This document shows, piece after piece, positions 318 to 14,917 of a DNA stretch of 20,597 nucleotides. The notes below the pieces were generated by a model. The model was not told the origin of the DNA. It did not search any database and worked only from the letters and a program-made list of their open reading frames with translations. The stretch comes from a virus (Duplodnaviria > Heunggongvirae > Uroviricota > Caudoviricetes): IMG/VR virus record IMGVR_UViG_2534681697_000013. One strand, written 5' to 3'. Each line of letters starts with the position of its first letter. Positions within the stretch are counted from its first letter, which is position 1. The translations under genes were made by a program, and so were the position numbers.

Positions 318-3298
<2,981 letters not shown>

Positions 3299-3374
3299 AA
3301 CCCTTGCTGCGTCTGGAATGTCGTTTTCCATGCTTTTGATGACCGTTCATCACCCTTCCAGTTTTTCGCGGTTT

Positions 3375-3428
3375 TGTGTATTGCAATGTGTATTGCAAAT
3401 TGGCGATCGGGATGGGTGTGTATTGCAA
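3375..3428 (+). repeat. Three direct copies of TGTGTATTGCAA (3375..3386, 3387..3398, 3417..3428); candidate integrase arm-type sites
   Basis: Exact 12-mers between the left junction and the int start; two more copies sit just inside the right junction. Confidence 0.55.
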
Positions 3429-3446
3429 ATCTCTTGAGGGCTTTTA

Positions 3447-4688
3447 ATGGCTATTGAAAACAAACTCAGTGACAAACTGTTAAAGAGTCTTGTCGGAAAA
3501 CGGCAGGACAAACAAAAAACAATAGCGGATGGGCGCGGGTTGTCTGTGCGTGTAAGCATGGTTGGGGGGATCAGCTTTGTTTTTTACTATCGTCTTGGTG
3601 GCAGGGAATCCCCTCCGGTATGGCTTACACTTGGTCGCTATCCTGACATGTCTCTTGCAACGGCCAGGCGCATGCGTGATCAGTGCCGTGAATGGCTGGC
3701 TGAAAATCTGGACCCCCGCAGGCAAATAAAACTTGCTGCCGAAAAAACTATGCAACCAGTGACCGTAAGGGATGCGCTGTTTTACTGGTACGACAATCAC
3801 GCCACAACAGCCAGAAAAGAGCATGAATATTTAATAAAACGATTTGAAAAGCATATCTTCCCCTATATCGGTGATATGGCTATAGAACAGTGCAAATTAC
3901 ACACATGGCTTACCGTCTTTGACAGGATCAAAAAAAATGCGCCTGTTATGTCTGGTGCAATTTTTCTTGATATCAAACAGGCGTTGCGTTTTTGTCGCGT
4001 CAGGCAATACATCGCGTGCGATCCCTTTGGAGATATTAACGTAAGTTATGTCGGGCGCTCATCCGGTATAAGGGATCGCGTTCTTAATATCAATGAAACC
4101 GCTGATGTATGGTCTTATGCTTACGGTAATAATTTGCTAACTCTGTCATCAATATATAACCGAAGAATAATGGTTATCTGCTTGGTGTTTGGTTGCCGAC
4201 AGCAGGAGGCGAGGCTATCCACCTGGGACGAATGGGATTTAAAAAACTGGGTATGGACAGTCCCAAAAGAGCACAGCAAAAACAAGGAGGCTATAGTAAG
4301 GCCTGTTCCTGACGGAATAAAACAATGGATCGTTAATCTTTACGCAGAAACAAAAAATCGCGGTTATGTTGTCGGTTGTGCTTTGCAAAGGGCGACAATA
4401 ACAGGGGCTGCAAACAGAATATGCAGGCGTCTTGGTCATGATACTAATGGCTTGTGGTGCATACATGATTTCAGGCGCACATTTTCCACTACGCTTAATG
4501 ATATGGGGGCGGATCCTTATATTGTCGAACTTCTTTTAGGTCATAAAGTGAAAGGGGTTGCTGGTGTTTACAATAAAAGCAGGCATATAAAGAAAAAACT
4601 TGAGGTGCTTAATATGTGGGTTAATTACCTTAATACGATAGCAGGATTTAACAACAACGTTATCGAGCTTAATAAAGAGGTGGTGTGA
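3447..4688 (+). CDS. int: Tyrosine recombinase / integrase (P4-type), 413 aa
   Basis: ORF with upstream GAGGG; C-terminal HDFRRTF...LLGHK...GVAGVYNKS is the tyrosine recombinase catalytic region. AT-richer than the flanking lambda genes. Confidence 0.92.
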   Translation: MAIENKLSDKLLKSLVGKRQDKQKTIADGRGLSVRVSMVGGISFVFYYRLGGRESPPVWLTLGRYPDMSLATARRMRDQCREWLAENLDPRRQIKLAAEKTMQPVTVRDALFYWYDNHATTARKEHEYLIKRFEKHIFPYIGDMAIEQCKLHTWLTVFDRIKKNAPVMSGAIFLDIKQALRFCRVRQYIACDPFGDINVSYVGRSSGIRDRVLNINETADVWSYAYGNNLLTLSSIYNRRIMVICLVFGCRQQEARLSTWDEWDLKNWVWTVPKEHSKNKEAIVRPVPDGIKQWIVNLYAETKNRGYVVGCALQRATITGAANRICRRLGHDTNGLWCIHDFRRTFSTTLNDMGADPYIVELLLGHKVKGVAGVYNKSRHIKKKLEVLNMWVNYLNTIAGFNNNVIELNKEVV

Positions 4689-4689
4689 T

Positions 4690-4947
4690 ATGGCAATTTA
4701 TTCTCTTGTTGATGAAAACGATTTGCGCACAATGAAGGACATTGATCGGTTCATTCGTGAAAAAGAGTGCATAGCACTTACCACGCTGGCAAACTCAACA
4801 CGCTGGAAAATGGAGCAGGCAGGTAAATTCCCGCGACGTATCAAGATCGGTGAACGTGCTGCAGGGTATCGACTTTCAGAGGTTCAGGCATGGATCCGTG
4901 GTGAGTGGCATCCTGGATGGAAACCTGGAAAAACAAAACAGCAATAA
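4690..4947 (+). CDS. alpA: AlpA-family wHTH regulator / excisionase-like protein, 85 aa
   Basis: Starts 2 nt after int stop; motif IALTTLANSTRWKMEQAGKFPRRIKIGERAAGYRLSEVQAWI matches the AlpA family. Confidence 0.8.
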   Translation: MAIYSLVDENDLRTMKDIDRFIREKECIALTTLANSTRWKMEQAGKFPRRIKIGERAAGYRLSEVQAWIRGEWHPGWKPGKTKQQ

Positions 4948-4960
4948 CCAGTAAATAATG

Positions 4961-4983
4961 CCCCTCATCACGAGGGGTTTTTT
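4961..4983 (+). terminator. Intrinsic terminator after alpA
   Basis: Stem CCCCTC / GAGGGG with loop ATCAC, followed by TTTTTT. Confidence 0.7.
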
Positions 4984-5003
4984 GTCTATAAGGTAAAAAC
5001 GCG

Positions 5004-5582
5004 ATGAATAAAAATATTGCCGTGACGGGCAAGGGGTACGCTCGTCCAGTGAAAAAATTCTGCGATATTCGTGATCTCGTCGTTCTGCGCTTTGATAGTG
5101 TGAACGTTCGTGTGGTGTATCTGAACGGCGATCCGTGGTTTGTTGCAAAAGATGTTTGTGCTGCGCTGGAACTAACCAATTCGCGTACGGCGTTGCAGAT
5201 GCTTGATGATGATGAAAAGGGAGTAAATTTAACTTACACCCCAGGAGGAAATCAGAATATGAGAATTATCTCTGAGTCAGGTTTCTACAAACTAATAGCC
5301 CGCAGCCGCAAAGCAACGACGCCTGGCACATTTGCTCATCGTTTCAGTAACTGGGTATTCAGAAATGTGATACCAGGTATCAGAAAAACGGGGACTTATG
5401 GTATCCCGTGGGGTGCATTACAGGATTTTTCCCGCCGTAAAGAGCAATATCAAATAAGTGCCAGCGAGAAGGGGAGGGAGCTACAGGCATGTAAGCGCAA
5501 AAAGCGTGAGCTGGAGGAAGAAGAAAAAACGCTGATACGTGAATATCAGCCTGAGTTTTACTTTGGTAACCGCATTCAGTGA
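5004..5582 (+). CDS. Bro-N domain protein (antirepressor-like), 192 aa
   Basis: N-terminus VVYLNGDPWFVAKDVCAALELTNSRTALQMLDDDEKG...GGNQNMRIISESGFYKLIARSRKA matches the Bro-N family; C-terminus is a charged coiled-coil-like tail. Confidence 0.78.
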   Translation: MNKNIAVTGKGYARPVKKFCDIRDLVVLRFDSVNVRVVYLNGDPWFVAKDVCAALELTNSRTALQMLDDDEKGVNLTYTPGGNQNMRIISESGFYKLIARSRKATTPGTFAHRFSNWVFRNVIPGIRKTGTYGIPWGALQDFSRRKEQYQISASEKGRELQACKRKKRELEEEEKTLIREYQPEFYFGNRIQ

Positions 5583-5591
5583 CAAAACAAA

Positions 5592-5612
5592 GGCGACCGC
5601 AAAAGGGTCGCC
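5592..5612. terminator. Hairpin between convergent genes (possible bidirectional terminator)
   Basis: Stem GGCGACC / GGTCGCC, loop GCAAAAG. T-rich tract only on the minus-strand side; none on the plus side. Confidence 0.5.
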
Positions 5613-5678
5613 AGTGGGAACAAGGGAAAACAAAAGCATCACCAACAATGCCACATTTGCGGCTGGTGGGCAATGTGA

Positions 5679-5858
5679 TCAGTCAGATTTGGTTCGTTCC
5701 AAGGTTTGCAACGAGAGCTTTTTCCTGTGCTCTTTAAGGAATTTCTCAAGAGCAAACGAACAAGGTGCGAATCTTTCTGATTCATGTTCATGCGCTATAT
5801 TTTTGCGTCGTCTCTTACGAGTTGGTGATGGTGTTTTGGTTGATTCTGTGTCGCTCAT
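5679..5858 (-). CDS. Small basic hypothetical protein, 59 aa (below the ORF-track size cutoff)
   Basis: Minus ATG at 5858 to TGA at 5679 encodes MSDTESTKTPSPTRKRRRKNIAHEHESERFAPCSFALEKFLKEHRKKLSLQTLERTKSD; weak AGGA upstream; directly downstream of the 101-aa minus ORF. Confidence 0.3.
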   Translation of the reverse strand: MSDTESTKTPSPTRKRRRKNIAHEHESERFAPCSFALEKFLKEHRKKLSLQTLERTKSD

Positions 5859-5915
5859 GGTGCTGTCCTGTAAAGCAATGCGCCTGCGTTCCTCAAACTA
5901 TGGCGCTGATATTGG

Positions 5916-6221
5916 CTATTCATGCTCTTTGACCTTGCGTCGCTGGAGTTCTTCACGCGCGACGGTGACGAGTTGCCCGATCTCCTCGGCTGCTTTGATG
6001 CCGATTTGTTCGACCTTAGCCAGGGCATCCAGTGACGACACAAGGGGATTTTCTCCGCTGCCTTCTGCTTGGCGGCGGGCTATTTCTCCGCGCATGGCGG
6101 TTACGATAAATCCGGCATTGCTTTCACCGTCCAGCTTAACGGATTCCATCCCTTGCATAACATCTAGTGGGACTCTGACAGTTGTCAGTTGTGATTTTGC
6201 GTTTTTGTTAGCCGTTGCCAT
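5916..6221 (-). CDS. Hypothetical protein, 101 aa; possible ribbon-helix-helix-type regulator
   Basis: AGGAG 8 nt upstream of ATG; N-terminal QLTTVRVPLDVMQGMESVK resembles a beta-strand plus helix start. Transcribed divergently from the operator region. Function is inferred. Confidence 0.5.
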   Translation of the reverse strand: MATANKNAKSQLTTVRVPLDVMQGMESVKLDGESNAGFIVTAMRGEIARRQAEGSGENPLVSSLDALAKVEQIGIKAAEEIGQLVTVAREELQRRKVKEHE

Positions 6222-6242
6222 TTCTGAAACTCCTAATCATCG

Positions 6243-6320
6243 GTGTGTTTCAGTATACACAAAAAAAGAAATACAAAAAGCCTTGACGTGTGTTTCATGC
6301 GCTCATAACATGAAACACAC
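6243..6320. promoter_or_regulatory. Divergent promoter region with operator-like repeats (candidate genetic switch)
   Basis: Plus strand: TTGACG (6283..6288), 17 bp, TAACAT (6306..6311). Perfect 12-bp inverted repeat GTGTGTTTCATG (6288..6299) / CATGAAACACAC (6309..6320), plus a third half-site GTGTGTTTCA at 6243..6252 over a minus-strand TATACT -10 candidate (6252..6257). Confidence 0.5.
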
Positions 6321-6348
6321 CGAAAGGATTGTTGAAATACAAAGAGCA

Positions 6349-6382
6349 ACGCCCCGCAGTGCTGGGAACACATACGGGGCGT
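6349..6382 (+). other. Stem-loop in the 5' leader of the rightward operon
   Basis: 8-bp stem ACGCCCCG / CGGGGCGT with an 18-nt loop, no T tract after it; lies between the promoter and the first ORF. Confidence 0.35.
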
Positions 6383-6411
6383 CTAACCAACAACGTAAAC
6401 TAGGAGCCGTT

Positions 6412-6609
6412 ATGGTTGCTGTAAATCATATACCACACCTTGTACACACACAAACGGCCTTTGTGTGGCGTTTTCTGGCACTGAGTGCCGGAGAATCTCA
6501 AATCATCCACGTAACCGCCTGGACGGAACGCGAAGCGCGTAGCCGTTGCCCGTCCGGTTGTGTTGCTGTATTCGCTGCAAAAATCCGCCAGGGAGTGAGT
6601 CATGCTTAA
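6412..6609 (+). CDS. Hypothetical small protein, 65 aa
   Basis: AGGAG 5 nt upstream of ATG 6412; stop overlaps the next ORF start at 6602. It is the C-terminal frame of the otherwise implausible track ORF 5539..6609. Confidence 0.4.
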   Translation: MVAVNHIPHLVHTQTAFVWRFLALSAGESQIIHVTAWTEREARSRCPSGCVAVFAAKIRQGVSHA

Positions 6610-6787
6610 AACCTTCCGTGTATTTGCCCGAGCTGTTAACCCAATAGGCCACACAATTGGTATCGCTCAGAATGTGAAGGCTGTTAATGTTCAGACGGCT
6701 ATTGCTGCGGTGAGAAGCGAATCATCAGAATATGGCTTATCACAAGTCATTATTTCAGCAGTGTATGAATTAAAAGAGGTGCATTAA
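6602..6787 (+). CDS. Hypothetical protein, 61 aa
   Basis: GGAGTGAG upstream of ATG; overlapping, translationally coupled operon layout. Confidence 0.45.
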   Translation: MLKTFRVFARAVNPIGHTIGIAQNVKAVNVQTAIAAVRSESSEYGLSQVIISAVYELKEVH

Positions 6788-6978
6788 TGCAGGAAATTAC
6801 ATTACACGAAGCCGCTGAACGTGCGCACCAGACAGAAATTATTTGCCGCCTTCTTGAGGTATACCCGAACAAAATTACAGATGCTGATATATCCGCACTG
6901 GCGAGCCTACTGGCGCGTCTTTCGGGAAGTGTCGCTAGTTTTTTGATTGAGGAAGAAAGTAAGCTGGTGGGGGATTAA
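6787..6978 (+). CDS. Hypothetical protein, 63 aa
   Basis: AGAGGTG upstream of ATG; start overlaps the preceding ORF end. Confidence 0.45.
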   Translation: MQEITLHEAAERAHQTEIICRLLEVYPNKITDADISALASLLARLSGSVASFLIEEESKLVGD

Positions 6979-7200
6979 ATGAATACAGAACGGGAAGTCT
7001 TTTTTAAATTGTTAGCATGTGCAGAAAGTTCATTAACTTTAAATAATTCAGCAAAAGCAATATTAAATATGTGGCTTGATTGCATAAATGACAATGAAGA
7101 TGCAAATATTGCTTATGGCCTGTTGTCACTTATTGATGAATCAGCAGAAAAACTCAATGACGCAATAAATAGTGCCCTGCTATCAAATAAGTCGAGTTAA
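6979..7200 (+). CDS. Hypothetical protein, 73 aa (AT-rich gene)
   Basis: Starts right after the previous stop with GGGGGA upstream; markedly lower GC than its neighbours. Confidence 0.5.
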   Translation: MNTEREVFFKLLACAESSLTLNNSAKAILNMWLDCINDNEDANIAYGLLSLIDESAEKLNDAINSALLSNKSS

Positions 7201-7217
7201 GTCGAGGAATAAATAAT

Positions 7218-7517
7218 ATGGAAATGAAAAATTCTGGCTTTATTGCCAGCGGCCCCGCTCGACCTGAATTTATGAACGGCGATATTTACCGCGATAAATA
7301 CGGCGGCACGGTAACGATTAAAGGCGTGGCAGAACGGCGCATCACTTACCGCCGTGAGGGGTATAGCTATGACTGCGTGATGCCTGTTTATCAGTTCCGG
7401 CGTGATTTTTCCCTGGTATATGCCGCACCCCGCAGTAAGCCCATCAGCAGGGAAAAAGCGTGGGGAAATATCCAGAAAATGAAAACCATGATTAACGGAT
7501 TCAGAGGTAAAAAATGA
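7218..7517 (+). CDS. Hypothetical protein, 99 aa
   Basis: GAGGAA upstream of ATG; stop overlaps the primase start. Confidence 0.55.
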   Translation: MEMKNSGFIASGPARPEFMNGDIYRDKYGGTVTIKGVAERRITYRREGYSYDCVMPVYQFRRDFSLVYAAPRSKPISREKAWGNIQKMKTMINGFRGKK

Positions 7518-9268
7518 AACTGGCACCGAACGTAAAACAGCAGTCACGCGGCATAAAACACAAAGGAACAGAAGTAATTATTTTTGCGGGTAGTGATGCC
7601 TGGGCACACGCGAAACAATGGCAGGAACATGATGCGCGTATGGCCGGAGATAATGAGCCTCCTGTGTGGCTTGGGGAGCAGCAGCTATCCGAACTGGATA
7701 ATCTGCAAATTGTGCCGGAAGGCCGAAAATCAGCACGCATATACAGGGCCGGATATCTTGCGCCTGTAATGATAAAGGCGATTGGTCAGAAGCTGGCGGC
7801 AGCAGGCGTACAGGATGCAAATTTTTATCCTGAGGGTATGCACGGCCAGGAGGTGCAGAACTGGCGCGAATATCTGGCCCGTGAACGCCAGAATCTTTCT
7901 GATGGTCTGGTCATTGAGCTTCCGGTAAAGCAAAAGGCGCAACTTTCGCAGATGGCGGACAGTGAGCGCGCGCAGTTGCTTGCCGATCGCTTTGATGGCG
8001 TTTGCGTACATCCTGAAAGTGAAATCGTTCACGTATGGCGCGGCGGGGTATGGTGTCCGGTCAGCACAATGGAACTTAGCCGCGAAATGGTGGCGATCTA
8101 TTCAGAGCACAGGGCCACTTTCAGCAAGCGCGTAATCAATAACGCCGTGGAAGCGTTAAAAGTTATTGCCGAACCAATGGGCGAGCCGTCTGGCGATTTG
8201 CTGCCGTTCGCCAATGGTGCGCTTGACCTGAAAACGGGGGAATTTTCCCCGCACACGCCGGAGAACTGGATCACCACGCACAACGGCATTGAGTACACGC
8301 CACCAGCACCAGGGGAGAACATCCGCGATAACGCGCCAAACTTTCATAAATGGCTTGAGCACGCAGCCGGAAAAGACCCGCGCAAGATGATGCGTATATG
8401 TGCCGCGCTGTACATGATTATGGCGAACCGGTACGACTGGCAGATGTTTATTGAGGCCACCGGAGACGGCGGGAGCGGTAAAAGTACATTCACACACATA
8501 GCCAGCCTTCTGGCAGGGAAACAGAACACGGTAAGCGCTGAAATGACATCGCTTGATGATGCTGGTGGACGTGCGCAGGTTGTCGGGAGTCGTCTTATCG
8601 TCCTGGCTGACCAGCCGAAATATACAGGCGAAGGAACGGGCATCAAGAAAATCACAGGCGGCGACCCCGTGGAAATTAACCCGAAATATGAAAAGCGTTT
8701 CACGGCGGTAATCAGGGCGGTGGTGCTGGCGACCAACAACAACCCGATGATATTCACCGAACGGGCCGGAGGTGTGGCACGTCGTCGCGTGATTTTCCGT
8801 TTCGACAATATCGTCAGTGAGGCCGAAAAAGACAGGGAGCTACCGGAAAAGATTGCGGCTGAAATCCCCGTTATTATCCGCCGATTGCTGGCGAACTTTA
8901 CCGACCCTGAGAAGGCACGGGCTTTACTACTGGAACAGCGTGACGGTGATGAAGCACTGGCAATAAAGCAACAGACGGATCCGGTTATTGAGTTTTGCCA
9001 GTTCCTGAATTTTCTGGAGGAAGCGCGCGGCCTGATGATGGGTGGCGGTGGTGATTCAGTGAAGTACACGACCAGGAACAGCCTTTACCGCGTCTATCTG
9101 GCGTTTATGGCATACGCGGGCAGGAGCAAACCGCTAAACGTGGCTGAGTTCAGCAAGGCCATGAAGCCAGCGGCGAAAGTTTACGGGCATGAATATATTA
9201 CGCGAAAAGTTAAGGGAGTAACGCAGACCAACGCAATTACAACAGACGATTGCGACGCGTTTTTATAA
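7514..9268 (+). CDS. Primase-helicase (P4 alpha-type), 584 aa
   Basis: Walker A GDGGSGKST and downstream helicase-like region; last gene of the small-ORF operon and followed directly by iterons. Confidence 0.88.
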   Translation: MKLAPNVKQQSRGIKHKGTEVIIFAGSDAWAHAKQWQEHDARMAGDNEPPVWLGEQQLSELDNLQIVPEGRKSARIYRAGYLAPVMIKAIGQKLAAAGVQDANFYPEGMHGQEVQNWREYLARERQNLSDGLVIELPVKQKAQLSQMADSERAQLLADRFDGVCVHPESEIVHVWRGGVWCPVSTMELSREMVAIYSEHRATFSKRVINNAVEALKVIAEPMGEPSGDLLPFANGALDLKTGEFSPHTPENWITTHNGIEYTPPAPGENIRDNAPNFHKWLEHAAGKDPRKMMRICAALYMIMANRYDWQMFIEATGDGGSGKSTFTHIASLLAGKQNTVSAEMTSLDDAGGRAQVVGSRLIVLADQPKYTGEGTGIKKITGGDPVEINPKYEKRFTAVIRAVVLATNNNPMIFTERAGGVARRRVIFRFDNIVSEAEKDRELPEKIAAEIPVIIRRLLANFTDPEKARALLLEQRDGDEALAIKQQTDPVIEFCQFLNFLEEARGLMMGGGGDSVKYTTRNSLYRVYLAFMAYAGRSKPLNVAEFSKAMKPAAKVYGHEYITRKVKGVTQTNAITTDDCDAFL

Positions 9269-9281
9269 TTTTTTGTAAAAG

Positions 9282-9503
9282 CCATCTACCCCATCTACCT
9301 GAACGAAATAAACGCATATTATTCAACATGATAAGTGGGTATAGGGCTAGGTAGAAGGCTAATAAAAGCTCTCTACCTCTTCTACCTGATTTTATCAGTT
9401 TCAGGTAGCAGGGTAGACGGCAGGTAGAGGAGTCAAAAAAGCTATCTACCCGCTGAAAGCGGCGCCATTACTGACATGATGAGCATTCGGGTAGATGGGT
9501 AGA
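9282..9503. repeat. Iteron cluster with AT-rich core; candidate replication origin
   Basis: (C)CATCTACC-type repeats on the plus strand at 9284, 9293, 9371, 9381, 9444 and inverted GGTAGA copies at 9350, 9404, 9412, 9423, 9490, 9498; terminal blocks CCATCTACCCCATCTACC and GGGTAGATGGGTAGAGG mirror each other; AT-rich stretch around 9300..9345. Confidence 0.6.
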
Positions 9504-9553
9504 GGGGGGGAGGCACAACTAAAAACTTTTTAAACGAGGGGGGGTGAAAATAA

Positions 9554-9868
9554 ATGCGCATACATAAAAATCACTTAACAAACATGCCAGCCGAAAACAT
9601 GAATCAGGGGCGACAAATGACCAAAATTCGCAGAGACAGAACACAGGCAAAATATAAAGCGTTAGACATGACAGAGCTTTCCTTAAAGGTGGCAATCAAA
9701 GCGATAGACCACCACACACGGGCAGGATACGCGAAGGAACATCCCGACCTGATAAGCGCATTCATGACCACAGCAGCGGCAAACTTTGCCACGCTGACAG
9801 AACGGGAGATTGCCGAAGCGGAACAGGTGACAACCATCAATGTTAAAACCGGAGAGCAGACAGCATGA
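9554..9868 (+). CDS. Hypothetical protein, 104 aa (true start may be a downstream Met)
   Basis: ORF after a G-rich Shine-Dalgarno-like tract; stop overlaps the SSB-like gene start (ATGA). Confidence 0.5.
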   Translation: MRIHKNHLTNMPAENMNQGRQMTKIRRDRTQAKYKALDMTELSLKVAIKAIDHHTRAGYAKEHPDLISAFMTTAAANFATLTEREIAEAEQVTTINVKTGEQTA

Positions 9869-10287
9869 CAGCACAGATAGCGGCTTACGGGCGGCTGGTG
9901 GCTGACCCGCAGTTAAAGACCACCAGCAAAGGGACACAAATGGCGATGGCGAGTATGGCGGTTCCCCTGCCGTGCAGCCAGGCAGATGACGGAACGGCGA
10001 CGATGTGGTTATCCGTCCTGGCGTTTGGCAGACAGGCCGACGCACTGGCAAAACACCACAAAGGCGAACTGGTGAGCGTGGCGGGTAACATGCAGGTAAG
10101 CCAGTGGACAGGCCAGAACGGCGAAACGCGGCGGGGCTGGCAGGTTATCGCAGACAGCGTAATCAGTGCGCGAACGGCGCGACCGGGCGGCAAAAAAGGC
10201 CAGCAGGGGCAGGCCACTGACGCACTGAACAGGGCAAAACAACAGTCGGGGAATGATGATCCGTACGGCGATAATATACCGTTTTAA
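9865..10287 (+). CDS. ssb: Single-stranded DNA-binding protein-like, 140 aa
   Basis: OB-fold-like core WLSVLAFGRQADALAKHHKGELVSVAGNMQVSQWTGQNGETRRGWQVIADSV, Gly/Gln-rich linker and a C-terminal ...DDPYGDNIPF tail resembling the SSB DDDIPF tip. Confidence 0.7.
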   Translation: MTAQIAAYGRLVADPQLKTTSKGTQMAMASMAVPLPCSQADDGTATMWLSVLAFGRQADALAKHHKGELVSVAGNMQVSQWTGQNGETRRGWQVIADSVISARTARPGGKKGQQGQATDALNRAKQQSGNDDPYGDNIPF

Positions 10288-10304
10288 ATTCTGCAAACAA
10301 AAAG

Positions 10305-10333
10305 ATGCCGGAAAAAAATAGATTTTCCGGCAT
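10305..10333. terminator. Strong hairpin after the SSB-like gene (putative terminator)
   Basis: Perfect 11-bp stem ATGCCGGAAAA / TTTTCCGGCAT with a 7-nt loop; no clear T tract after it, so terminator function is uncertain. Confidence 0.4.
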
Positions 10334-10498
10334 GCTACATAAATCCCGACCAAAGGAAGTAAATACATTAACACGAATTATCAGCACTGAAGTTGTTACG
10401 GCATATTTTATACAACATTGCACTTGGTTGCATGTGTTCGCATAGCAGACATCGGTAATAGAATATATTCACAATTATTTGTAATGAATGTAAAGAGG

Positions 10499-11545
10499 AT
10501 GAGTATGGTTGATTTATATTCGCCTACACAGCTTGTGCAGGTGGCTAATGCTGAAGATGTGCAAAAAAATTAAATGCGTTGTTTACCAGTTTGTTTTTCA
10601 CTCGCTCGGTAATGTTTGAATCGAGAGACATTATTCTTGATACGATCGACGATCCAAATATCCCGATCGCGGCGTTTTGCTCTCCTATGGTGGGCAGTAA
10701 AGTTTCACGAGATGAGGGATACGAATCAAAAACAATTCGTCCAGGTTATATGAAGCCGAAAAGCAGCATTGATCCAAATAAGTTAGCTGTGCAGCCCTGC
10801 TGGTGTGTCACCTGAGCAATACAATGCTTTTGGGGCGCGTAATATTAAAGTTAAACAGGCGATTGTAAATCAGGCTAAAGCTATTCGTGCACGTATTGAA
10901 TGGCTTGCTGTTCAGGCAATCACAACGGGGAAAAATATCATTGAGGGCGATGGTATTGAACGTTATGAGCTGGACTGGAATATAAAACCACAAAATATCA
11001 TCACTCAGTCTGGCGGTACTGAGTGGTCAGGTAAGGATAAAGAAACTTTTGATCCAAATGATGATATTGAGAGCTACGCAGAATTTAGTGAGGGCGTCAC
11101 TAATATCATCATTATGGGTGGTAATGTATGGAAGAAATACCGTTCATTCAGAGCGATAAAAGAGGCTTTGGATACCCGTCGTGGTTCTAATTCCGAACTG
11201 GAAACGGCCCTTAAAGACCTTGGTGATTCGGTGAGTTTTAAAGGGTATATGGGCGATGTTGCGATTGTTGTTTACAGCGGGCGTTATACCGACGAGGACG
11301 GAACAGAAAAACATTTCCTTGATCCTGATTTGATGGTGCTTGGCAATACGGCTCTTCAGGGGATTGTCGCCTATGGCGGTATTCAGGATCCGGAGCTAAT
11401 CCGAATGGGGCTGACTAAAGCCGAACTTGCACCGAAAAACTATATTGTGCCTGGTGATCCGGCTATTGAATATGTGCAGACACATTCAGCACCACAGCCA
11501 ATACCGGCCCGCATCAATCGTTTTGTTACCGTTCGCATTGGCTAA
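10499..11545 (+). pseudogene. Major capsid protein gene (lambda gpE-like), disrupted by two frameshifts
   Basis: Three consecutive frames each align with successive parts of gpE. First: MSMVDLYSPTQLVQVANAEDVQKN*, stopping at 10571. Second, to 10815: KKLNALFTSLFFTRSV...PGYMKPKSSIDPNKLAVQP. Third, 10805..11545: ...ITQSGGTEWSGKDKETFDPNDDIESY...DTRRGSNSELETALKDLG...GDVAIVVYSG.... The breaks sit in an A7 run (10563..10569) and a CCC run (10795..10797). Confidence 0.75.
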
Positions 11546-11554
11546 GGGGGAGCA

Positions 11555-11896
11555 ATGGCTACTCATTACACTGAACTCATGGCTGGCACTGAAGCACTGG
11601 TGACTACGCTGGGGATATTTTCAGCTAATAAAGGGGTAATTCCTGCATTTACGCCACTGATGCAGGAAGATGCAACAGGTGCACTGGTGGTATGGGATGG
11701 TTCGAGCGTAGGTAAAGCGGTTTATGTTTCCGCTGTACAAATCGACACCGCGAAAAAAACACAGGCTCAGGTCTATAAGACAGGTGTCTTAAATGTTGAT
11801 GCTCTGAACTGGCCTGAGTCTGTTAAAGAACTGTCAGTAAAGGTTGCAGCGTTTGTTGGCTCAGGTATTTCTGTTCAGCCGCTGGCTCGTGTGTAA
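11555..11896 (+). CDS. Head decoration protein (lambda gpD-like), 113 aa, apparently intact
   Basis: AAGGGGGA upstream of ATG. LVVWDGSSVGKAVYVSAV, VYKTGVLNVDALNWPE and AAFVGSGISV parallel the gpD motifs [34 protein letters not shown] and [10 protein letters not shown]. Confidence 0.72.
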   Translation: MATHYTELMAGTEALVTTLGIFSANKGVIPAFTPLMQEDATGALVVWDGSSVGKAVYVSAVQIDTAKKTQAQVYKTGVLNVDALNWPESVKELSVKVAAFVGSGISVQPLARV

Positions 11897-11907
11897 AGGG
11901 GGATACA

Positions 11908-12291
11908 ATGCAGAATGATTACAATGACCTTAAGCCAATTGCCGAAATGATGTACCCGAATCCAGCTGTAGAGGAATTAAAAGCTATCGCTGACAAAATG
12001 TGTTTAAGCGAGCGCCTTGTTGATATGAATCAGGTGATGGAAATTACAACCCTGAGTCGTCGTACACTGCTAAACCTTGAGGCTAGTGGAGAGTTCCCGG
12101 AGCGTGTGCAGGTTACGGAAGGGCGTAAGGCCTGGTATTTAAGTGAAGTGATCGACTGGATAAATAATATTCCTCGCGCTTCTGAATATTGCCGCGTACC
12201 TGTCCCAAAAAAGCCAGATGCGGCGCTATGCCTCAAGATTGAGCGTGTACGCCGCAATGCACGGGATGGTCGCTATAAGCTGATTGGTTGA
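11908..12291 (+). CDS. AlpA/MerR-type wHTH DNA-binding protein, 127 aa
   Basis: AGGGGGA upstream of ATG; motif MNQVMEITTLSRRTLLNLEASGEFPERVQVTEGRKAWYLSEVIDWI matches the AlpA family. Sits between the decoration gene and cos. Confidence 0.6.
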   Translation: MQNDYNDLKPIAEMMYPNPAVEELKAIADKMCLSERLVDMNQVMEITTLSRRTLLNLEASGEFPERVQVTEGRKAWYLSEVIDWINNIPRASEYCRVPVPKKPDAALCLKIERVRRNARDGRYKLIG

Positions 12292-12343
12292 TGAAATTAG
12301 GGCCCGCTCTGGCTGGCGGGTCCTTTCCGGTGATCCGGTAGGC

Positions 12344-12381
12344 TACGGGGCGGCGACCTCGCGGGTTTTCGCTATTTATGA
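12344..12381. other. cos site: lambda-type cosN (cohesive-end 12-mer GGGCGGCGACCT at 12348..12359)
   Basis: TACGGGGCGGCGACCTCGCGGGTTTTCGCTATTTATGA matches the lambda cosN region; downstream sequence up to the small terminase gene differs from lambda cosB. Confidence 0.75.
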
Positions 12382-12492
12382 GCCTTTTTCGGGTGCTGGT
12401 GGTGGTTTTGTTGTTCGCTCTATCTCTATGAATAAAAAGGAAAAGATAAAGCCAATACACCAACCTGAAACATTACTTAAGTGGGGATATTG

Positions 12493-13035
12493 ATGAAATC
12501 GCACCTGATGAACAAAAAAAACATGGCGCAAAGCTGCCGTGTAAGTGCGACAGCGTTCGACAAGTGGGGAGTGACTCCCGTTGAACGTAAAGGCCGCGAG
12601 GCGTTTTATGATGTTGCCAGCGTAATAGACAATCGGGTTAGCAATGCAATTAACCAGATTACAGACGACAAAGGCGAGATTGATGATGATGAACTCCTAC
12701 GAGTCAGGATCAGATTGCTGACAGCACAGGCAGAGGCGCAGGAGCTTAAAAACGAGCGCGAACGCGGCGACGTTATTGATACAGCGTTTTGTATATACGT
12801 GCTTTCAAAATTGGCGAGTCAGATTTCTTCAATCATGGACAGCCTGCCGCTTGCCATGACAAGGAAGTTTCCCGACATGAAGCCGTCTATGCTGGATGGA
12901 CTGAAAAAAGAAGTTATCAGAGCCTGTAACGCATGCGCAAAACTTGACGAAAACATACCGCTGATGCTGTCCGATTATCTGATGGAAACTGCCGGAAACG
13001 TACCGGATAAGTTGCAGCCGAATAAAGATAAGTAA
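12493..13035 (+). CDS. Terminase small subunit homologue (Nu1-like), about 180 aa; start could instead be 12481 (GTG) or 12508 (ATG)
   Basis: LLTAQAEAQELKNERERGDVIDTAFCIYVLSKLASQISSIMDSLPLAMTRKFPDMKPSMLDGLKKEVIRACNACAKLDENIPLMLSDYL parallels the Nu1 C-terminal half in this window; N-terminus MNKKNMAQ... parallels Nu1 MEVNKKQLA...; immediately downstream of cos. Confidence 0.8.
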   Translation: MKSHLMNKKNMAQSCRVSATAFDKWGVTPVERKGREAFYDVASVIDNRVSNAINQITDDKGEIDDDELLRVRIRLLTAQAEAQELKNERERGDVIDTAFCIYVLSKLASQISSIMDSLPLAMTRKFPDMKPSMLDGLKKEVIRACNACAKLDENIPLMLSDYLMETAGNVPDKLQPNKDK

Positions 13036-13046
13036 CGTAGTACGCT

Positions 13047-13328
13047 ATGACTGAATCCGAAATACTGCGATTAATCCGCCGTGCTTGTGGAATCAGCAAG
13101 CAGCATGACGAACAGGCCACGCAGCCGGACAGCGTGACCGCAGATAATTATGTGCGTGTAGTGGCTGAGGTGATGCGCCGTGACGGTATTGAGCTTAACG
13201 GCGTGGATATGCGCAACATACGAACAAGAGTCCTTGAGTTGCTGGCATATCGTCGCCGTTCTCAACAACGGAGGGAGAGCGCGAAAAATACTTACCAGTG
13301 GAAGAAGCCGGAACGATTGCGGCGGTAA
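13047..13328 (+). CDS. Hypothetical protein, 93 aa
   Basis: ORF 12 nt after the small terminase stop; no strong Shine-Dalgarno; function unknown. Confidence 0.45.
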   Translation: MTESEILRLIRRACGISKQHDEQATQPDSVTADNYVRVVAEVMRRDGIELNGVDMRNIRTRVLELLAYRRRSQQRRESAKNTYQWKKPERLRR

Positions 13329-13579
13329 CTTGCTGATATTCCCGATAACGCAAAATTGCGCTGGCTGACTTGTTGCATTGCAAAAAGTTAAGCAGGAAGG
13401 CACGGCCTGTAAGATGGGATGCAGTAAGTAGTTCAAGGCTACCTTGTGCTGGCACGCACAGTTAAGCCGTCGGTGCTGGATATCCCCCACTGGGGGAAAA
13501 GCTGGCTACATCCCTCACATCTGAGGACTGATAACGCGACATTGCGCTGGCTGGCAAAGTGCAAAATTGCACGATGGCC

Positions 13580-13726
13580 TAACCCATTGATTATTTCGAA
13601 AACCTGCAATGCAGGAAATCGGGGAAGTAAGCCTAAGCTATTGATTGTTTCGAAAACCCCCATTGGGGGATGTCGGGAAAGTAAGACTAACCCATTGATT
13701 CTTCCACAATCCTCAATTTGAGGAGG
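13580..13726. repeat. Tandem direct repeats of about 54 bp (2.5 copies), each with a short inverted repeat
   Basis: Units begin TAACCCATTGATTATTTCGAAAACC, TAAGCTATTGATTGTTTCGAAAACC and TAACCCATTGATTCTTCC; each contains a small palindrome (CTGCAATGCAG, CCCCCATTGGGGG, CCTCAATTTGAGG) and ends GG(G)AAGTAAG(C/A)C. Confidence 0.55.
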
Positions 13727-14041
13727 CCGGAACGTCTACATAGCTGCATCGCCGTAATGATGATTCAGCCCACCAGCCAAATCAGCACAGCAACGACAGA
13801 ATAGCCCGACACAGAAAAACCACGAATATGGGGTTTTTGTTATGACATGGTCATGATGACCACTCATACAAAACAGGTAAAGCCCACCAGCCTGATTAAA
13901 GGTTAACCGGAAAAAAGCCAGGTATCCAATCTCGATATGGGGATCCCTATATCGACATTAACGCCCACTAAAACTGTGCATATATGCATAGAAAAAGCAT
14001 CCACCAGCTTTATGACGGATGCCGCTCATCTTATAAATAAT

Positions 14042-14065
14042 CGTGTATTGCAGTGTGTATTGCGA
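14042..14065 (+). repeat. Two direct copies of (C/T)GTGTATTGC(A/G) (14042..14052, 14054..14065); candidate arm-type sites at the right end
   Basis: Same motif and orientation as the three copies upstream of int. Confidence 0.5.
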
Positions 14066-14137
14066 CTCCTTTAAACGATAGGTCTGAGCATTCGTAATGT
14101 ACTGTTTTTAAATTTTATTTTTTCCTGTCTTTTCATA

Positions 14138-14145
14138 AAGGCGAT
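14138..14145. other. Right junction core (attR-like) AAGGCGAT
   Basis: Direct repeat of 3239..3246; portal-like sequence resumes in frame immediately after. Confidence 0.6.
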
Positions 14146-14917
14146 GTATGCCGCCACCATTGAGAGTGAGCTGGATACGCAGTCAGCGATGGATTTTATT
14201 CTGGGCGCGAACAGTAAGGAGCAGCGGGACAAGCTGACCGGCTGGATTGGTGAAATTGCCGCGTATTACGCCGCAGCACCGGTCCGTCTGGGAGGCGCAA
14301 AAGTGCCGCACCTGATGCCGGGGGACTCACTGAACCTGCAGACGGCTCAGGACACGGATAACGGCTACTCCGTGTTTGAGCAGTCACTGTTGCGGTATAT
14401 CGCTGCCGGGCTGGGTGTCTCGTATGAGCAGCTTTCCCGGAATTACGCCCAGATGAGCTACTCCACGGCACGGGCCAGTGCGAACGAGTCGTGGGCGTAC
14501 TTTATGGGGCGGCGAAAATTCGTCGCATCCCGTCAGGCGAGCCAGATGTTTCTGTGCTGGCTGGAAGAGGCCATCGTTCGCCGCGTGGTGACGTTACCTT
14601 CAAAAGCGCGTTTCAGCTTTCAGGAAGCCCGCAGCGCCTGGGGGAACTGTGACTGGATAGGCTCCGGTCGTATGGCCATCGATGGTCTGAAAGAAGTACA
14701 GGAAGCGGTGATGCTGATAGAAGCCGGACTGAGTACCTACGAGAAAGAGTGCGCAAAACGCGGTGACGACTATCAGGAAATTTTTGCCCAGCAGGTCCGT
14801 GAAACGATGGAGCGCCGTGCAGCCGGTCTTAAACCGCCCGCCTGGGCGGCTGCGGCATTTGAATCCGGACTGCGACAATCAACAGAGGAGGAGAAGAGTG
14901 ACAGCAGAGCTGCGTAA
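14138..14917 (+). pseudogene. B: Portal protein gpB, C-terminal part (portal reading frame resumes at 14146)
   Basis: Translation (KA)MYAATIESELDTQSAMDFILGANSKEQRDKLTGWIGEIAAYY...GLRQSTEEEKSDSRAA* is the portal C-terminus; the last 20 nt overlap the GTG start of C. Confidence 0.9.

Follow-up and report, generated by a model that had tools for sequence, protein, structure and literature searches.

Mnt of phage P22 is a small ribbon-helix-helix (RHH) repressor with a C-terminal helical extension, which is encoded by a divergently oriented gene, acts on an operator positioned over its target promoter and regulates its own expression. RHH proteins of the ParG and omega type recognise short asymmetric repeats that are arrayed in both direct and inverted orientation, and the Stl proteins of Gram-positive PICIs (SaPIs) are helix-turn-helix repressors. 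Stl/Rpr are derepressed by binding of a helper-phage protein (PMC6092414). For the PICIs of Gram-negative bacteria, the founding paper called the presence of a global repressor 'unclear' and spoke of 'a completely different strategy' from that of the SaPIs; induction of the prototype EcCICFT073 is driven by AlpA, overexpression of which alone triggers replication, and was explained through AlpA without the need for a repressor (PMC6092414). AlpA of Pseudomonas has been described as a processive antiterminator (PMC7969949, PMC9371919). In later surveys, the YlcI/YnfO gene figures as no more than an accessory 'prophage-associated protein' (PMC13612085), titles and abstracts retrieved in literature searches assign no function to YlcI or YnfO, and the satellite literature examined names no protein that would silence these elements in Gram-negative bacteria. 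Our analysis, in which fold, site array, promoter conservation and protein/operator co-variation were established computationally, suggests that a 101-aa member of this family is probably the repressor that keeps its satellite silent.

Genetic organization of the locus

The element studied in the window (the whole stretch of DNA analysed here, 20,597 nt) is a phage satellite, a helper-embedded PICI residing inside an E. coli prophage, and not a phage itself, as indicated by genome annotation and PMC10111431. As the sequence-only reading had described, a leftward two-gene unit and a rightward operon with a primase gene diverge from an intergenic region of 190 bp (6222-6411), the gap between the 101-aa ORF and the first rightward ORF. 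The leftward unit (minus strand) begins with the 101-aa ORF, a YlcI/YnfO-family gene (5916-6221), which is followed by a 59-aa ORF (orf59, 5679-5858). Its transcript would end at an intrinsic-terminator-like hairpin on the minus strand (5592-5612; GGCGACCC-TTTTGC-GGTCGCC, then TTTGTTTTGT), which has no T-run on the plus strand and is unidirectional, leftward only. The rightward operon (plus strand) is headed by the gene for a 65-aa Icd-like protein (6412-6609) and, by way of three small ORFs without Pfam or NCBIfam matches at significant E-values and a gene for a DUF4222 protein, reaches a D5/P4-type primase gene (7514-9268). Of the PHROG families that the Icd-like protein matches, two bear the label 'transcriptional repressor'; a comparison of the protein with the annotated 'cI' ORF of P4 and with the complete P4 genome revealed no similarity. 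Part of the module was matched in 1404 of 5426 complete E. coli genomes, i.e., in about a quarter. The comparative set consisted of 167 related loci, found in genomes and metagenomes as well as on viral contigs, plus the prototype EcCICFT073.

Promoters and repeats in the intergenic region

A promoter scan of positions 5400-7000 returned TTGACG-17-TAACAT as the only promoter-like match on the plus strand. This rightward promoter, P_R (6283-6311), consists of a -35 hexamer TTGACG (6283-6288), a 17-nt spacer and a -10 hexamer TAACAT (6306-6311), and both it and a TATACT on the opposite strand (6257-6252) had already been recognised from the sequence. In 11 of 12 classes of related loci as scanned, the P_R hexamers do not shift in position (the classes are described below; in the KSQVKNVRIP row the scan picked a wrong TTG), and relatives have TTGACN or TTGAAA/TTGCAA, a spacer of 16-18 nt and, usually, TAAnnT. 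The minus-strand TATACT (6252-6257) is a candidate leftward -10, since a TATAnT-like hexamer occurs here in most classes. It is accompanied by no recognisable -35 hexamer and was missed by the promoter scan; the leftward promoter is thus poorly defined and appears weaker than P_R.

The same region harbors a conspicuous set of repeats. GTGTGTTTCA occupies 6243-6252 and 6288-6297, with its complement at 6311-6320, resulting in a perfect 12-bp inverted repeat (arms 6288-6299 and 6309-6320, spacer 9 nt) and a further perfect inverted pair of 13 nt (6240-6252/6311-6323). The 20.6 kb contain no more than three exact copies of TGTGTTTCA, all inside 76 bp. In Markov-simulated windows, chance produced a mean of 0.08 perfect 12-bp inverted repeats (spacer <=40 nt) per window, and none of 200 simulations had a 10-mer three times within 100 bp. 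The three half-sites of the sequence-only reading, two of which form the perfect 12-bp palindrome, are therefore all there, but the array comprises five sites, S1 to S5, rather than three. They start at 6244, 6267, 6289, 6311 and 6333, and with this spacing of 23, 22, 22 and 22 bp they share the same face of the helix. S1 (6244-6252, plus strand, TGTGTTTCA) abuts the leftward -10 on its downstream side and probably serves as an autoregulatory operator. S2 (6267-6275, minus strand; AGAAATACA on the plus strand, i.e., TGTATTTCT inverted) is a degenerate partner of S1, and the equivalent position holds the class-specific motif in other classes. S3 (6289-6297, plus strand, TGTGTTTCA) is located in the P_R spacer as the left arm of the 12-bp inverted repeat, the right arm of which is S4 (6311-6319, minus strand, TGTGTTTCA inverted), positioned over the P_R -10/+1. 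S5 (6333-6341, minus strand; TGAAATACA on the plus strand) is degenerate with one mismatch, lies 22 bp past S4 and is less conserved outside E. coli. Thus, S1 and S2 flank the minus-strand TATACT, while S3 and S4 overlap core elements of P_R. Speaking against the repressor reading proposed below, the individual site is not palindromic, and the operators of Arc, MetJ and omega are spaced more tightly than 22 bp.

The 101-aa protein and orf59

The 101-aa protein matches the NCBIfam model YlcI/YnfO NF041551 over residues 9-50 (63.3 bits versus a cutoff of 30, E=1.6e-17), and an identical protein in E. coli genomes has been given the YlcI/YnfO name by PGAP as well. The first reading had raised the possibility of an RHH-type regulator, which gains support from structure prediction. 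Residues ~1-55 are predicted to form an RHH DNA-binding domain: the AlphaFold model of residues 1-57 (pLDDT 82.5; monomer models only) displays a strand-helix-helix arrangement, as in the ~45-residue beta-strand/helix/helix fold of the RHH (Arc/MetJ/CopG) superfamily. In RHH proteins, helix 1 and helix 2 are joined by a G-x-S/T/N turn, and the two helices of the 101-aa protein are likewise separated by a turn, G32-E33-S34, with E33 invariant and position 34 being S or T in relatives. None of the Pfam RHH models reached its gathering score with the window protein (best, PSK_trans_fac with 16.1 bits versus 28.3), and a PDB profile search with the protein found no RHH chain; sub-threshold matches to PSK_trans_fac, an RHH antitoxin family, were obtained for 35 of 43 relatives (best E=1e-3). 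BLASTP against a manually entered P22 Mnt sequence gave no similarity. The C-terminal domain (residues ~58-100) is helical and near-invariant, either a coiled coil or HhH-like; it is a single long helix in AlphaFold and matched the Hef HhH motif in the PDB profile search at a marginal E=0.006.

The best structural matches of the RHH domain are the antitoxins Rv0298, TacA, MazE and ParD, with omega and ParG-type proteins also among the matches. Together with the weak Pfam matches to the antitoxin family PSK_trans_fac and a gene order of RHH gene followed by a small co-directional ORF, which resembles that of toxin-antitoxin operons, this might indicate that the two leftward genes form a type II toxin-antitoxin-like addiction module, in which the repeats serve only its own conditional autoregulation and their overlap with P_R is incidental. 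In that case, the 101-aa protein would be the antitoxin, with an RHH domain and a C-terminal tail for binding the toxin, orf59. The properties of orf59 fit poorly. It is a small conserved basic protein with the core ERFAPC(A/S)FALEKFLKE, which is intact with 57-71 aa in most of 24 distinct variants (one is truncated, two have longer upstream starts), matches PHROG 21027 (E=5e-15) and has an annotated homologue in CFT073; it has, however, no match to any toxin or defence family in Pfam, NCBIfam, PHROG or PADLOC, the latter giving no match for any of the four module proteins. Moreover, orf59 is located 42-57 bp from the RHH gene without overlap, and in one class it is missing from all but 3 of 37 loci, although the RHH protein of that class is intact. 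Finally, in every class two of the four strongest sites fall within the conserved P_R, one in its spacer and one over its -10/+1, a placement which autoregulation does not need. We therefore consider a toxin-antitoxin module improbable.

Since ParG and omega bind arrays of the kind introduced above, the 101-aa protein might alternatively be a centromere-binding or partition-type protein, or an activator, with the array as a parS-like or plasmid-maintenance site of the excised satellite. The satellite, however, encodes no ParA/ParM-type ATPase, the sites number only four to five and are 22 bp apart instead of forming contiguous heptads, and they overlap core promoter elements, which implies repression whatever else the sites do. 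A partition role is accordingly regarded as very improbable, and a function as repressor is the reading followed below.

Co-variation of protein and repeats

Comparison of the related loci revealed 12 classes, in which the sequence of the repeat changes along with the N-terminal arm, the beta-strand and sometimes helix 1 of the protein. Each beta-strand class has its own 9-mer, which is present in 3-6 copies at the same positions, about 25, 47, 70, 92 and 114 bp from the start codon, and motifs cross-match between classes only where they are near-identical. The window belongs to the class KSQLTTVRVP (QLTTV); other classes are KSQSLTARIP (QSLTA), with GTGTAAGAC-type operators, and KSKQISIRIP, with TGTGATTC-type operators. 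The same beta-strand is found in Xenorhabdus and Photorhabdus, and a closely similar one in Serratia, with the sites kept and the spacers diverged. Compared with other classes, the C-terminal half of the gene mostly shows 83-100% nucleotide identity, which collapses exactly over the beta-strand and the operators. As the beta-strand codons are only about 25-60 bp away from the operators, and thus physically linked to them, some co-variation of protein and operator is to be expected; what carries the argument is that block and domain boundaries recurrently coincide and that conservation extends to other genera. Taken in this way, the data support the notion that the repeats behave as operators of the 101-aa protein, and the co-variation of beta-strand and repeat lends indirect support to sequence-specific DNA binding by an RHH dimer. 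A plus-strand hairpin with a T-rich tail (6175-6188) lies within the beta-strand codons; its sequence is class-specific, and it was taken as a chance occurrence.

The repeats might also be bound by another protein of the element, with the RHH protein unrelated to them: by AlpA or integrase at regulatory or arm-type sites, by the primase at origin iterons, or by the Icd-like protein. In P4, the annotated ori and crr carry clustered octamer 'type 1' repeats, to which the alpha primase binds. AlpA, in turn, is the known regulator of Gram-negative PICIs (PMC6092414). However, which operator class a locus carries is unrelated to its alleles of AlpA, integrase, the Icd-like protein, primase or orf59. 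At loci with the window's repeat, AlpA is 100, 67, 58, 52, 48 or 46% identical to that of the window and the primase 100, 95, 80, 61 or 48%, and, conversely, the window's AlpA and primase alleles (98-100% identical) are also found with other repeat classes; likewise, the allele of the Icd-like protein does not depend on the repeat class. In addition, a distinct repeat, GTGTATTGC, of which five copies are located at the two ends of the satellite, is a better candidate for Int/AlpA arm sites than the repeats in the promoter region. A different binder is, accordingly, very improbable, and the RHH protein is retained as the likely ligand of the array.

Leader of the rightward operon

Between P_R and the icd-like gene, the leader is predicted to form a conserved hairpin (6349-6382, plus strand; ACGCCCCG ... 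CGGGGCGT, with an inner GUG/CAC stem), directly followed by a conserved CUAACCA motif (6383-6389, plus strand). The case for this hairpin rests on covariation (11 pairs, with pairing in 90.8% of cells and compensatory changes at 6 pairs; score reached by 0 of 500 shuffles) and not on the single-sequence fold, which is not significant alone (z=-1.13). A possible second small hairpin (AACG ... CGTT, 6392-6411, plus strand), noticed by inspection, would hold the icd Shine-Dalgarno sequence AGGAG (6402-6406) in its loop; its pairing is kept by at least six different stem sequences in relatives and is absent from the MFE fold of the window itself. An antisense countertranscript ending at the leader hairpin was considered and dropped because no minus-strand promoter-like site is located downstream of it. 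A C4, isrK or c4-a1b1 immunity RNA was detected neither in the whole window at the Rfam gathering score nor in 5500-7300 at E up to 10, while the P4 positive control matched strongly. C4/isrK-type RNAs occur in some PICIs and helper-embedded PICIs (PMC10111431). One relative (L161) carries the RHH/operator module and isrK plus C4 together, so that the two are not simple alternatives.

A proposed repressor module

We propose that the 101-aa protein is an autoregulated RHH repressor of a PICI-type satellite, acting through phased operators over P_R and the leftward promoter and forming part of an exchangeable cassette, and assign this reading a probability of about 0.7. DNA binding, repression and autoregulation by the protein are what we infer from these analyses. 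RHH dimers would bind the phased array of 9-10-bp sites; occupancy of S3 and S4 would block RNA polymerase and keep the icd-like/DUF4222/primase (replication) operon silent in the quiescent satellite, while S1 and S2, flanking the weak leftward -10, would confer autoregulation on the repressor/orf59 transcript, ending at the 5612-5592 terminator. N-terminal arm, beta-strand, in some cases helix 1, and operators would constitute the cassette, exchanged as one of at least 12 classes and set between a near-invariant C-terminal domain and the conserved leader. Different satellites would thus have private 'immunities'.

The sequence-only reading had gone further and regarded the region as a lysogeny/induction switch with the 101-aa protein as candidate repressor. 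Its core, namely divergent promoters bearing the operators of a candidate RHH repressor, is upheld by the fold, the repeat co-variation and the sites over the conserved P_R; the role as a switch is less likely. Like lambda cI-Cro and P22 Mnt-Arc, the locus has divergent promoters with overlapping operators, but it lacks an antagonistic second regulator, as none of Cro- or Arc-like type could be recognised among the first genes of the rightward operon with Pfam, NCBIfam or PHROG. More likely than a bistable switch is a quiescence or immunity repressor that is bypassed or overridden at induction. How this might occur is more speculative: AlpA-dependent transcription from the int-alpA-bro side could run rightward, as might helper late transcription in the helper-embedded copy, passing antisense through the repressor gene and over the operators into the replication operon. 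No obvious plus-strand terminator lies in the path of such read-through.

If the repressor role is correct, it would supply the missing quiescence function, predict immunity or incompatibility groups among co-resident satellites and provide a testable function for the uncharacterised YlcI/YnfO family. At least 12 natural orthogonal RHH/operator pairs on a common scaffold could, furthermore, serve specificity studies. EcCICFT073 shares the layout, with a 59-aa RHH-only version that lacks the C-terminal domain and two GTGGGCCACACC sites around TTGACG-18-TATAGT. A tentative and rather doubtful extension would hold that YlcI-type RHH proteins are the master repressors of enterobacterial PICIs including EcCICFT073, that the cassettes define immunity groups and that the near-invariant C-terminal domain is a common handle by which helper phages, satellite Bro/Ant-type proteins or orf59 sense or relieve repression. 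Gram-negative PICIs would then share the repressor logic of the SaPIs, with AlpA acting downstream or in parallel.

Comparison with known systems

The prophage proteins YlcI (DLP12) and YnfO (Qin) of E. coli K-12 belong to NF041551 like the 101-aa protein. The helper prophage encodes a YlcI of its own, ~24% identical to the 101-aa protein over the RHH domain; unlike the satellite gene, it is located in the late region next to cos, and no similar repeats are found upstream of it. The CI antisense RNA of P4 and C4 of P1 occupy an equivalent place at the head of the primase operon in related satellites, but these systems are RNA-based and act by premature termination, and neither C4 nor isrK was matched in the window. 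Omega of pSM19035 and ParG are RHH dimers that bind cooperatively to short non-palindromic direct and inverted repeats, as proposed here; their heptads are, however, contiguous (7-bp register), whereas the satellite sites are 22-23 bp apart, and they have a partition ATPase partner which the satellite lacks. Stl/Rpr of the Gram-positive PICIs resemble the 101-aa gene in being divergent from the replication operon and in their presumed role in quiescence (PMC6092414), but Stl is a helix-turn-helix and the 101-aa protein an RHH protein, and, in contrast to derepression by a helper-phage protein, the inducer documented for the Gram-negative elements is AlpA. The P22 immI repressor Mnt shares with it the RHH N-terminal domain, the helical C-terminal extension, a gene divergent from the target operon and an operator overlapping the target promoter, and its autoregulation corresponds to that proposed here. 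P22 has a second regulator, Arc, of which no counterpart was found here, and, whereas Mnt acts on one short symmetric operator to control an antirepressor, the satellite would use five phased 9-10-bp sites to control its replication operon.

Results

All the ORFs, hexamers and repeats on which the sequence-only reading had built its divergent promoter/operator region were found again at their coordinates. The leftward unit consists of the 101-aa ORF (5916-6221, minus strand) and a 59-aa ORF, termed orf59 (5679-5858, minus strand), while a rightward ORF series with its first start at 6412 (plus strand) leads to a D5/P4-type primase (7514-9268); the gap between the divergent genes comprises 190 bp (6222-6411). 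The rightward promoter P_R (TTGACG-17-TAACAT, 6283-6311, plus strand) was the sole plus-strand sigma-70-like match returned by the promoter scan within 5400-7000. TATACT, a leftward -10 candidate, is located at 6257-6252 on the minus strand; a workable -35 hexamer is missing, and no promoter was called there by the scan. Direct copies of GTGTGTTTCA occupy 6243-6252 and 6288-6297, an inverted copy occupies 6311-6320, and the perfect 12-bp inverted-repeat arms (6288-6299 and 6309-6320) are separated by 9 nt. The 20.6-kb window holds three exact TGTGTTTCA copies, all inside 76 bp. When the window was simulated 200 times with a first-order Markov model, perfect 12-bp inverted repeats whose spacer did not exceed 40 nt arose 0.08 times per simulated sequence on average, and none of the 200 contained a 10-mer thrice within 100 bp. 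The three half-sites originally described are real, but two degenerate copies had been overlooked, S2 (AGAAATACA, 6267-6275) and S5 (TGAAATACA, 6333-6341), giving a total of five sites, S1-S5, which start at 6244, 6267, 6289, 6311 and 6333 in a 22-23-bp register. Another perfect 12-bp inverted repeat (AATGATGATATT/AATATCATCATT, 11057-11068 and 11102-11113, 33-nt spacer) is AT-rich, resides within the satellite capsid gene and possibly occurs by chance.

The 101-aa protein matches the NCBIfam YlcI/YnfO model with 63.3 bits (cutoff 30), and 35 of 43 relatives gave sub-threshold matches to PSK_trans_fac, a ribbon-helix-helix (RHH) antitoxin family. The helices of its predicted RHH domain are parted by a G-E-S turn. 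It passes none of the curated RHH sequence models, so its assignment to the RHH superfamily, which had been put forward as possible, depends on the predicted fold. The C-terminal domain (residues ~58-100, DNA 5919-6050) is near-invariant among relatives and aligns in a PDB profile search to the helix-hairpin-helix motif of archaeal Hef (E=0.006), whereas AlphaFold models it as one long continuous helix; G73, invariant among relatives, lies mid-helix in this domain.

A total of 172 related loci were gathered from genomes, metagenomes and viral contigs, and the 167 with a complete upstream region were analysed. The homologues share a conserved scaffold with a hypervariable N-terminal arm and beta-strand (KSQLTTVRVP, as in the window, KSQMTTIRVP, KSQSLTARIP, KSKQISIRIP, RSQMKNIRFP, KSQQLNARFP). 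Each beta-strand class has its own 9-mer in 3-6 copies, located ~25, 47, 70, 92 and, in some cases, 114 bp from the start codon: TGTGTTTCA for QLTTV and QLFTV, TGTAAGAC for QSLTA, TGTGATTC for KQISI, GTGAATACC for QQLNA, TGGGATTCA for QQINA and TGTATATCA for QMTTI, with GTGTGTA-type motifs in the xKNxR classes. Cross-class matches arise only where motifs differ by one base. As scanned, the promoter position is constant in 11 of 12 classes; a -35 of TTGACN or TTGAAA/TTGCAA, a spacer of 16-18 nt and a -10 that is usually TAAnnT are kept, and the part varying between classes is the spacer sequence together with the stretch right after the -10. Within the window's class, comparison of E. coli, Xenorhabdus, Photorhabdus and Serratia revealed that S1, S2, S3, S4 and the -35 are kept while the flanks and the S3-S4 spacer have diverged. 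Against other E. coli classes, nucleotide identity is mostly 83-100% across 5952-6130, drops from ~6160 (earlier in two classes) to 6340 and partially recovers at a leader hairpin. This collapse points to an exchangeable block comprising the DNA-reading part of the RHH protein and the putative operators. The beta-strand codons are physically linked to these operators, and linkage alone could inflate the co-variation argument.

Other proteins might bind the repeats, yet the repeat class tracks no other gene compared. At loci with the window's repeat, AlpA alleles are 100, 67, 58, 52, 48 or 46% identical to that of the window, integrases 100, 54, 40, 38 or 24%, Icd-like proteins 100, 95, 54, 51 or 45%, and primases 100, 95, 80, 61 or 48%; conversely, the AlpA allele of the window recurs in the QSLTA class, and the window's primase allele (98-100%) is spread over four classes. 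Integrase or AlpA arm sites are more plausibly represented by the distinct motif GTGTATTGC, with five exact copies (0.13 expected) exclusively at the two satellite ends: 3376-3384, 3388-3396 and 3418-3426, just upstream of int, and 14043-14051 and 14055-14063 at the right end. These copies are likely arm-type att sites. A second AlpA/excisionase-like HTH gene (11908-12291, plus strand; PHROG 2790, E=1e-49) lies in the late region, flanked by the decoration and small-terminase genes. In several related satellites (L003, L064, L075, L092), the Rfam int-alpA RNA motif (RF02996) occurs between int and alpA; none was detected in the window.

Alternatively, the RHH gene and orf59 might constitute a toxin-antitoxin module. 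orf59 (PHROG 21027) proves to be a genuine, conserved small ORF with the core ERFAPC(A/S)FALEKFLKE and variable ends. Most related loci keep it intact, and the majority of the 24 distinct variants are uninterrupted at 57-71 aa; it lacks PGAP annotation in the identical APEC O2-211 sequence, and its CFT073 homologue is annotated (WP_000130015.1). However, family and PADLOC searches matched orf59 to no toxin or defence family, 42-57 bp separate it from the RHH gene, and it is missing in most loci of one class, rendering such a module improbable.

A 1.1-kb region is 100% identical in many E. coli chromosomes, and part of it is found in 1404 of 5426 complete genomes. The annotated gene order in APEC O2-211 is integrase, AlpA-type regulator, Bro-N, YlcI/YnfO (leftward), Icd-like, small ORFs, DUF4222, primase, SSB, major capsid, decoration, a second HTH protein and small terminase subunit. 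This satellite block of ~10.7 kb (3299-14143, from int at 3447-4688 through the right end) splits a lambdoid prophage's portal gene, with which it is co-oriented (N-terminal part 2417-3298, C-terminal part 14144-14917), and brings its own genes for the major capsid protein, the decoration protein and the small terminase subunit. The configuration is that of the helper-embedded PICIs of Tommasini, Mageeney and Williams, who describe zones for integration, Bro, replication and late functions as well as RNA immunity (PMC10111431). The helper prophage has its own distant YlcI/YnfO paralogue outside the window (L001 7551-7784, 77 aa), which adjoins cos and nohD and is ~24% identical to the satellite protein over the RHH domain.

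Downstream of P_R and ahead of the icd-like start codon, a leader hairpin (6349-6382, plus strand) is formed by ACGCCCCG/CGGGGCGT and an inner stem, followed by CUAACCA (to 6389). Across 24 diverse leaders its 11 pairs were 90.8% paired, versus 28-47% with partners slid; six of the 11 show compensatory changes across genera, and the covariation score was reached by none of 500 shuffles. The fold energy of the window's own leader is unremarkable (z=-1.13). By inspection, a second small stem (6392-6411) lies around or beside the icd Shine-Dalgarno, and relatives preserve its base-pairing through no fewer than six different stems (AACG/CGTT, CGTTA/TAACG, CGATA/TATCG, ATGTAA/TTACAT, CATTA/TAATG, CGTAA/TTACG); a role in translational control is possible. 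Some 35 nt into the icd-like ORF, a terminator-like hairpin (CACACAAA-CGGCC-TTTGTGTG, then GCGTTTTCTG; 6447-6467, plus strand) could be an attenuation point or an isrK-like remnant. The absence of an Rfam match and the different architecture of P4 CI ruled out the leader as a C4/CI RNA. In the relative L161, Rfam matches to isrK (80 bits) and C4 (76 bits) at 2508-2693 (locus minus strand, corresponding to window rightward) lie directly downstream of the RHH/operator module; thus, protein and antisense-RNA immunity can co-exist in one satellite.

The experimentally studied EcCICFT073 of E. coli CFT073 carries an equivalent module: int, alpA, a leftward pair (the 57-aa orf59 homologue and a 59-aa YlcI/YnfO protein) and, divergently, Icd-like, small ORFs, DUF4222, primase, SSB, PerC and capsid. 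Its 59-aa protein consists of the RHH domain and the last few residues, lacking residues ~52-93 of the window protein. The intergenic promoter is TTGACG-18-TATAGT, with GTGGGCCACACC in the spacer and a second copy after the -10; the site core GTGGgCCAC is a near-palindrome.

Discussion

The case for an RHH repressor and its operators rests as a whole on computation, which yields a predicted RHH fold, a phased site array overlapping the conserved promoter, and specificity co-variation confined to the RHH reading head. RHH dimers on S3 and S4 would block P_R, and those on S1 and S2 would autoregulate the leftward transcript, which would stop at the minus-strand terminator (5612-5592). The 22-bp register would place the dimers along one helix face; the C-terminal domain may bridge them, a role that would be dispensable in CFT073.

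Of the proposed lysogeny/induction switch, the 101-aa protein holds as a candidate repressor with putative operators; for induction, family searches of the module proteins yielded no recognisable Cro- or Arc-like partner. In EcCICFT073, overexpressing the activator AlpA is by itself enough to cause excision and pri-dependent replication (PMC6092414), and the abstracts of PMC7969949 and PMC9371919 describe Pseudomonas AlpA as a processive antiterminator. The satellite is co-oriented with the helper late genes (APEC O2-211 annotation; PMC10111431), and the terminator after bro is leftward only. Based on these points and the missing partner, it might be speculated that rightward read-through, antisense over the repressor gene and operators, enters the replication operon, bypassing P_R repression and interfering with repressor synthesis. 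Alternatively, an antirepressor might target the invariant C-terminal domain; the Bro-N protein has hits in PHROG 'anti-repressor' families.

Fillol-Salom et al. called the global repressor of Gram-negative PICIs 'unclear' (PMC6092414), and a 2026 survey lists the YlcI/YnfO gene as an accessory 'prophage-associated protein' of cf-PICIs (PMC13612085). A full-text search of literature on YlcI/YnfO, DUF3950, PICI RHH proteins and cf-PICI repressors/AlpA returned no functional study of the protein or its operators. A term search of PMC10111431 showed neither 'operator' nor 'repressor' applied to the RHH module, and its gene-content section omits the leftward gene. If borne out, the novelty would lie in the function assigned, its occurrence in Gram-negative PICIs and the cassette organisation, while an RHH repressor at divergent promoters is a classical design.
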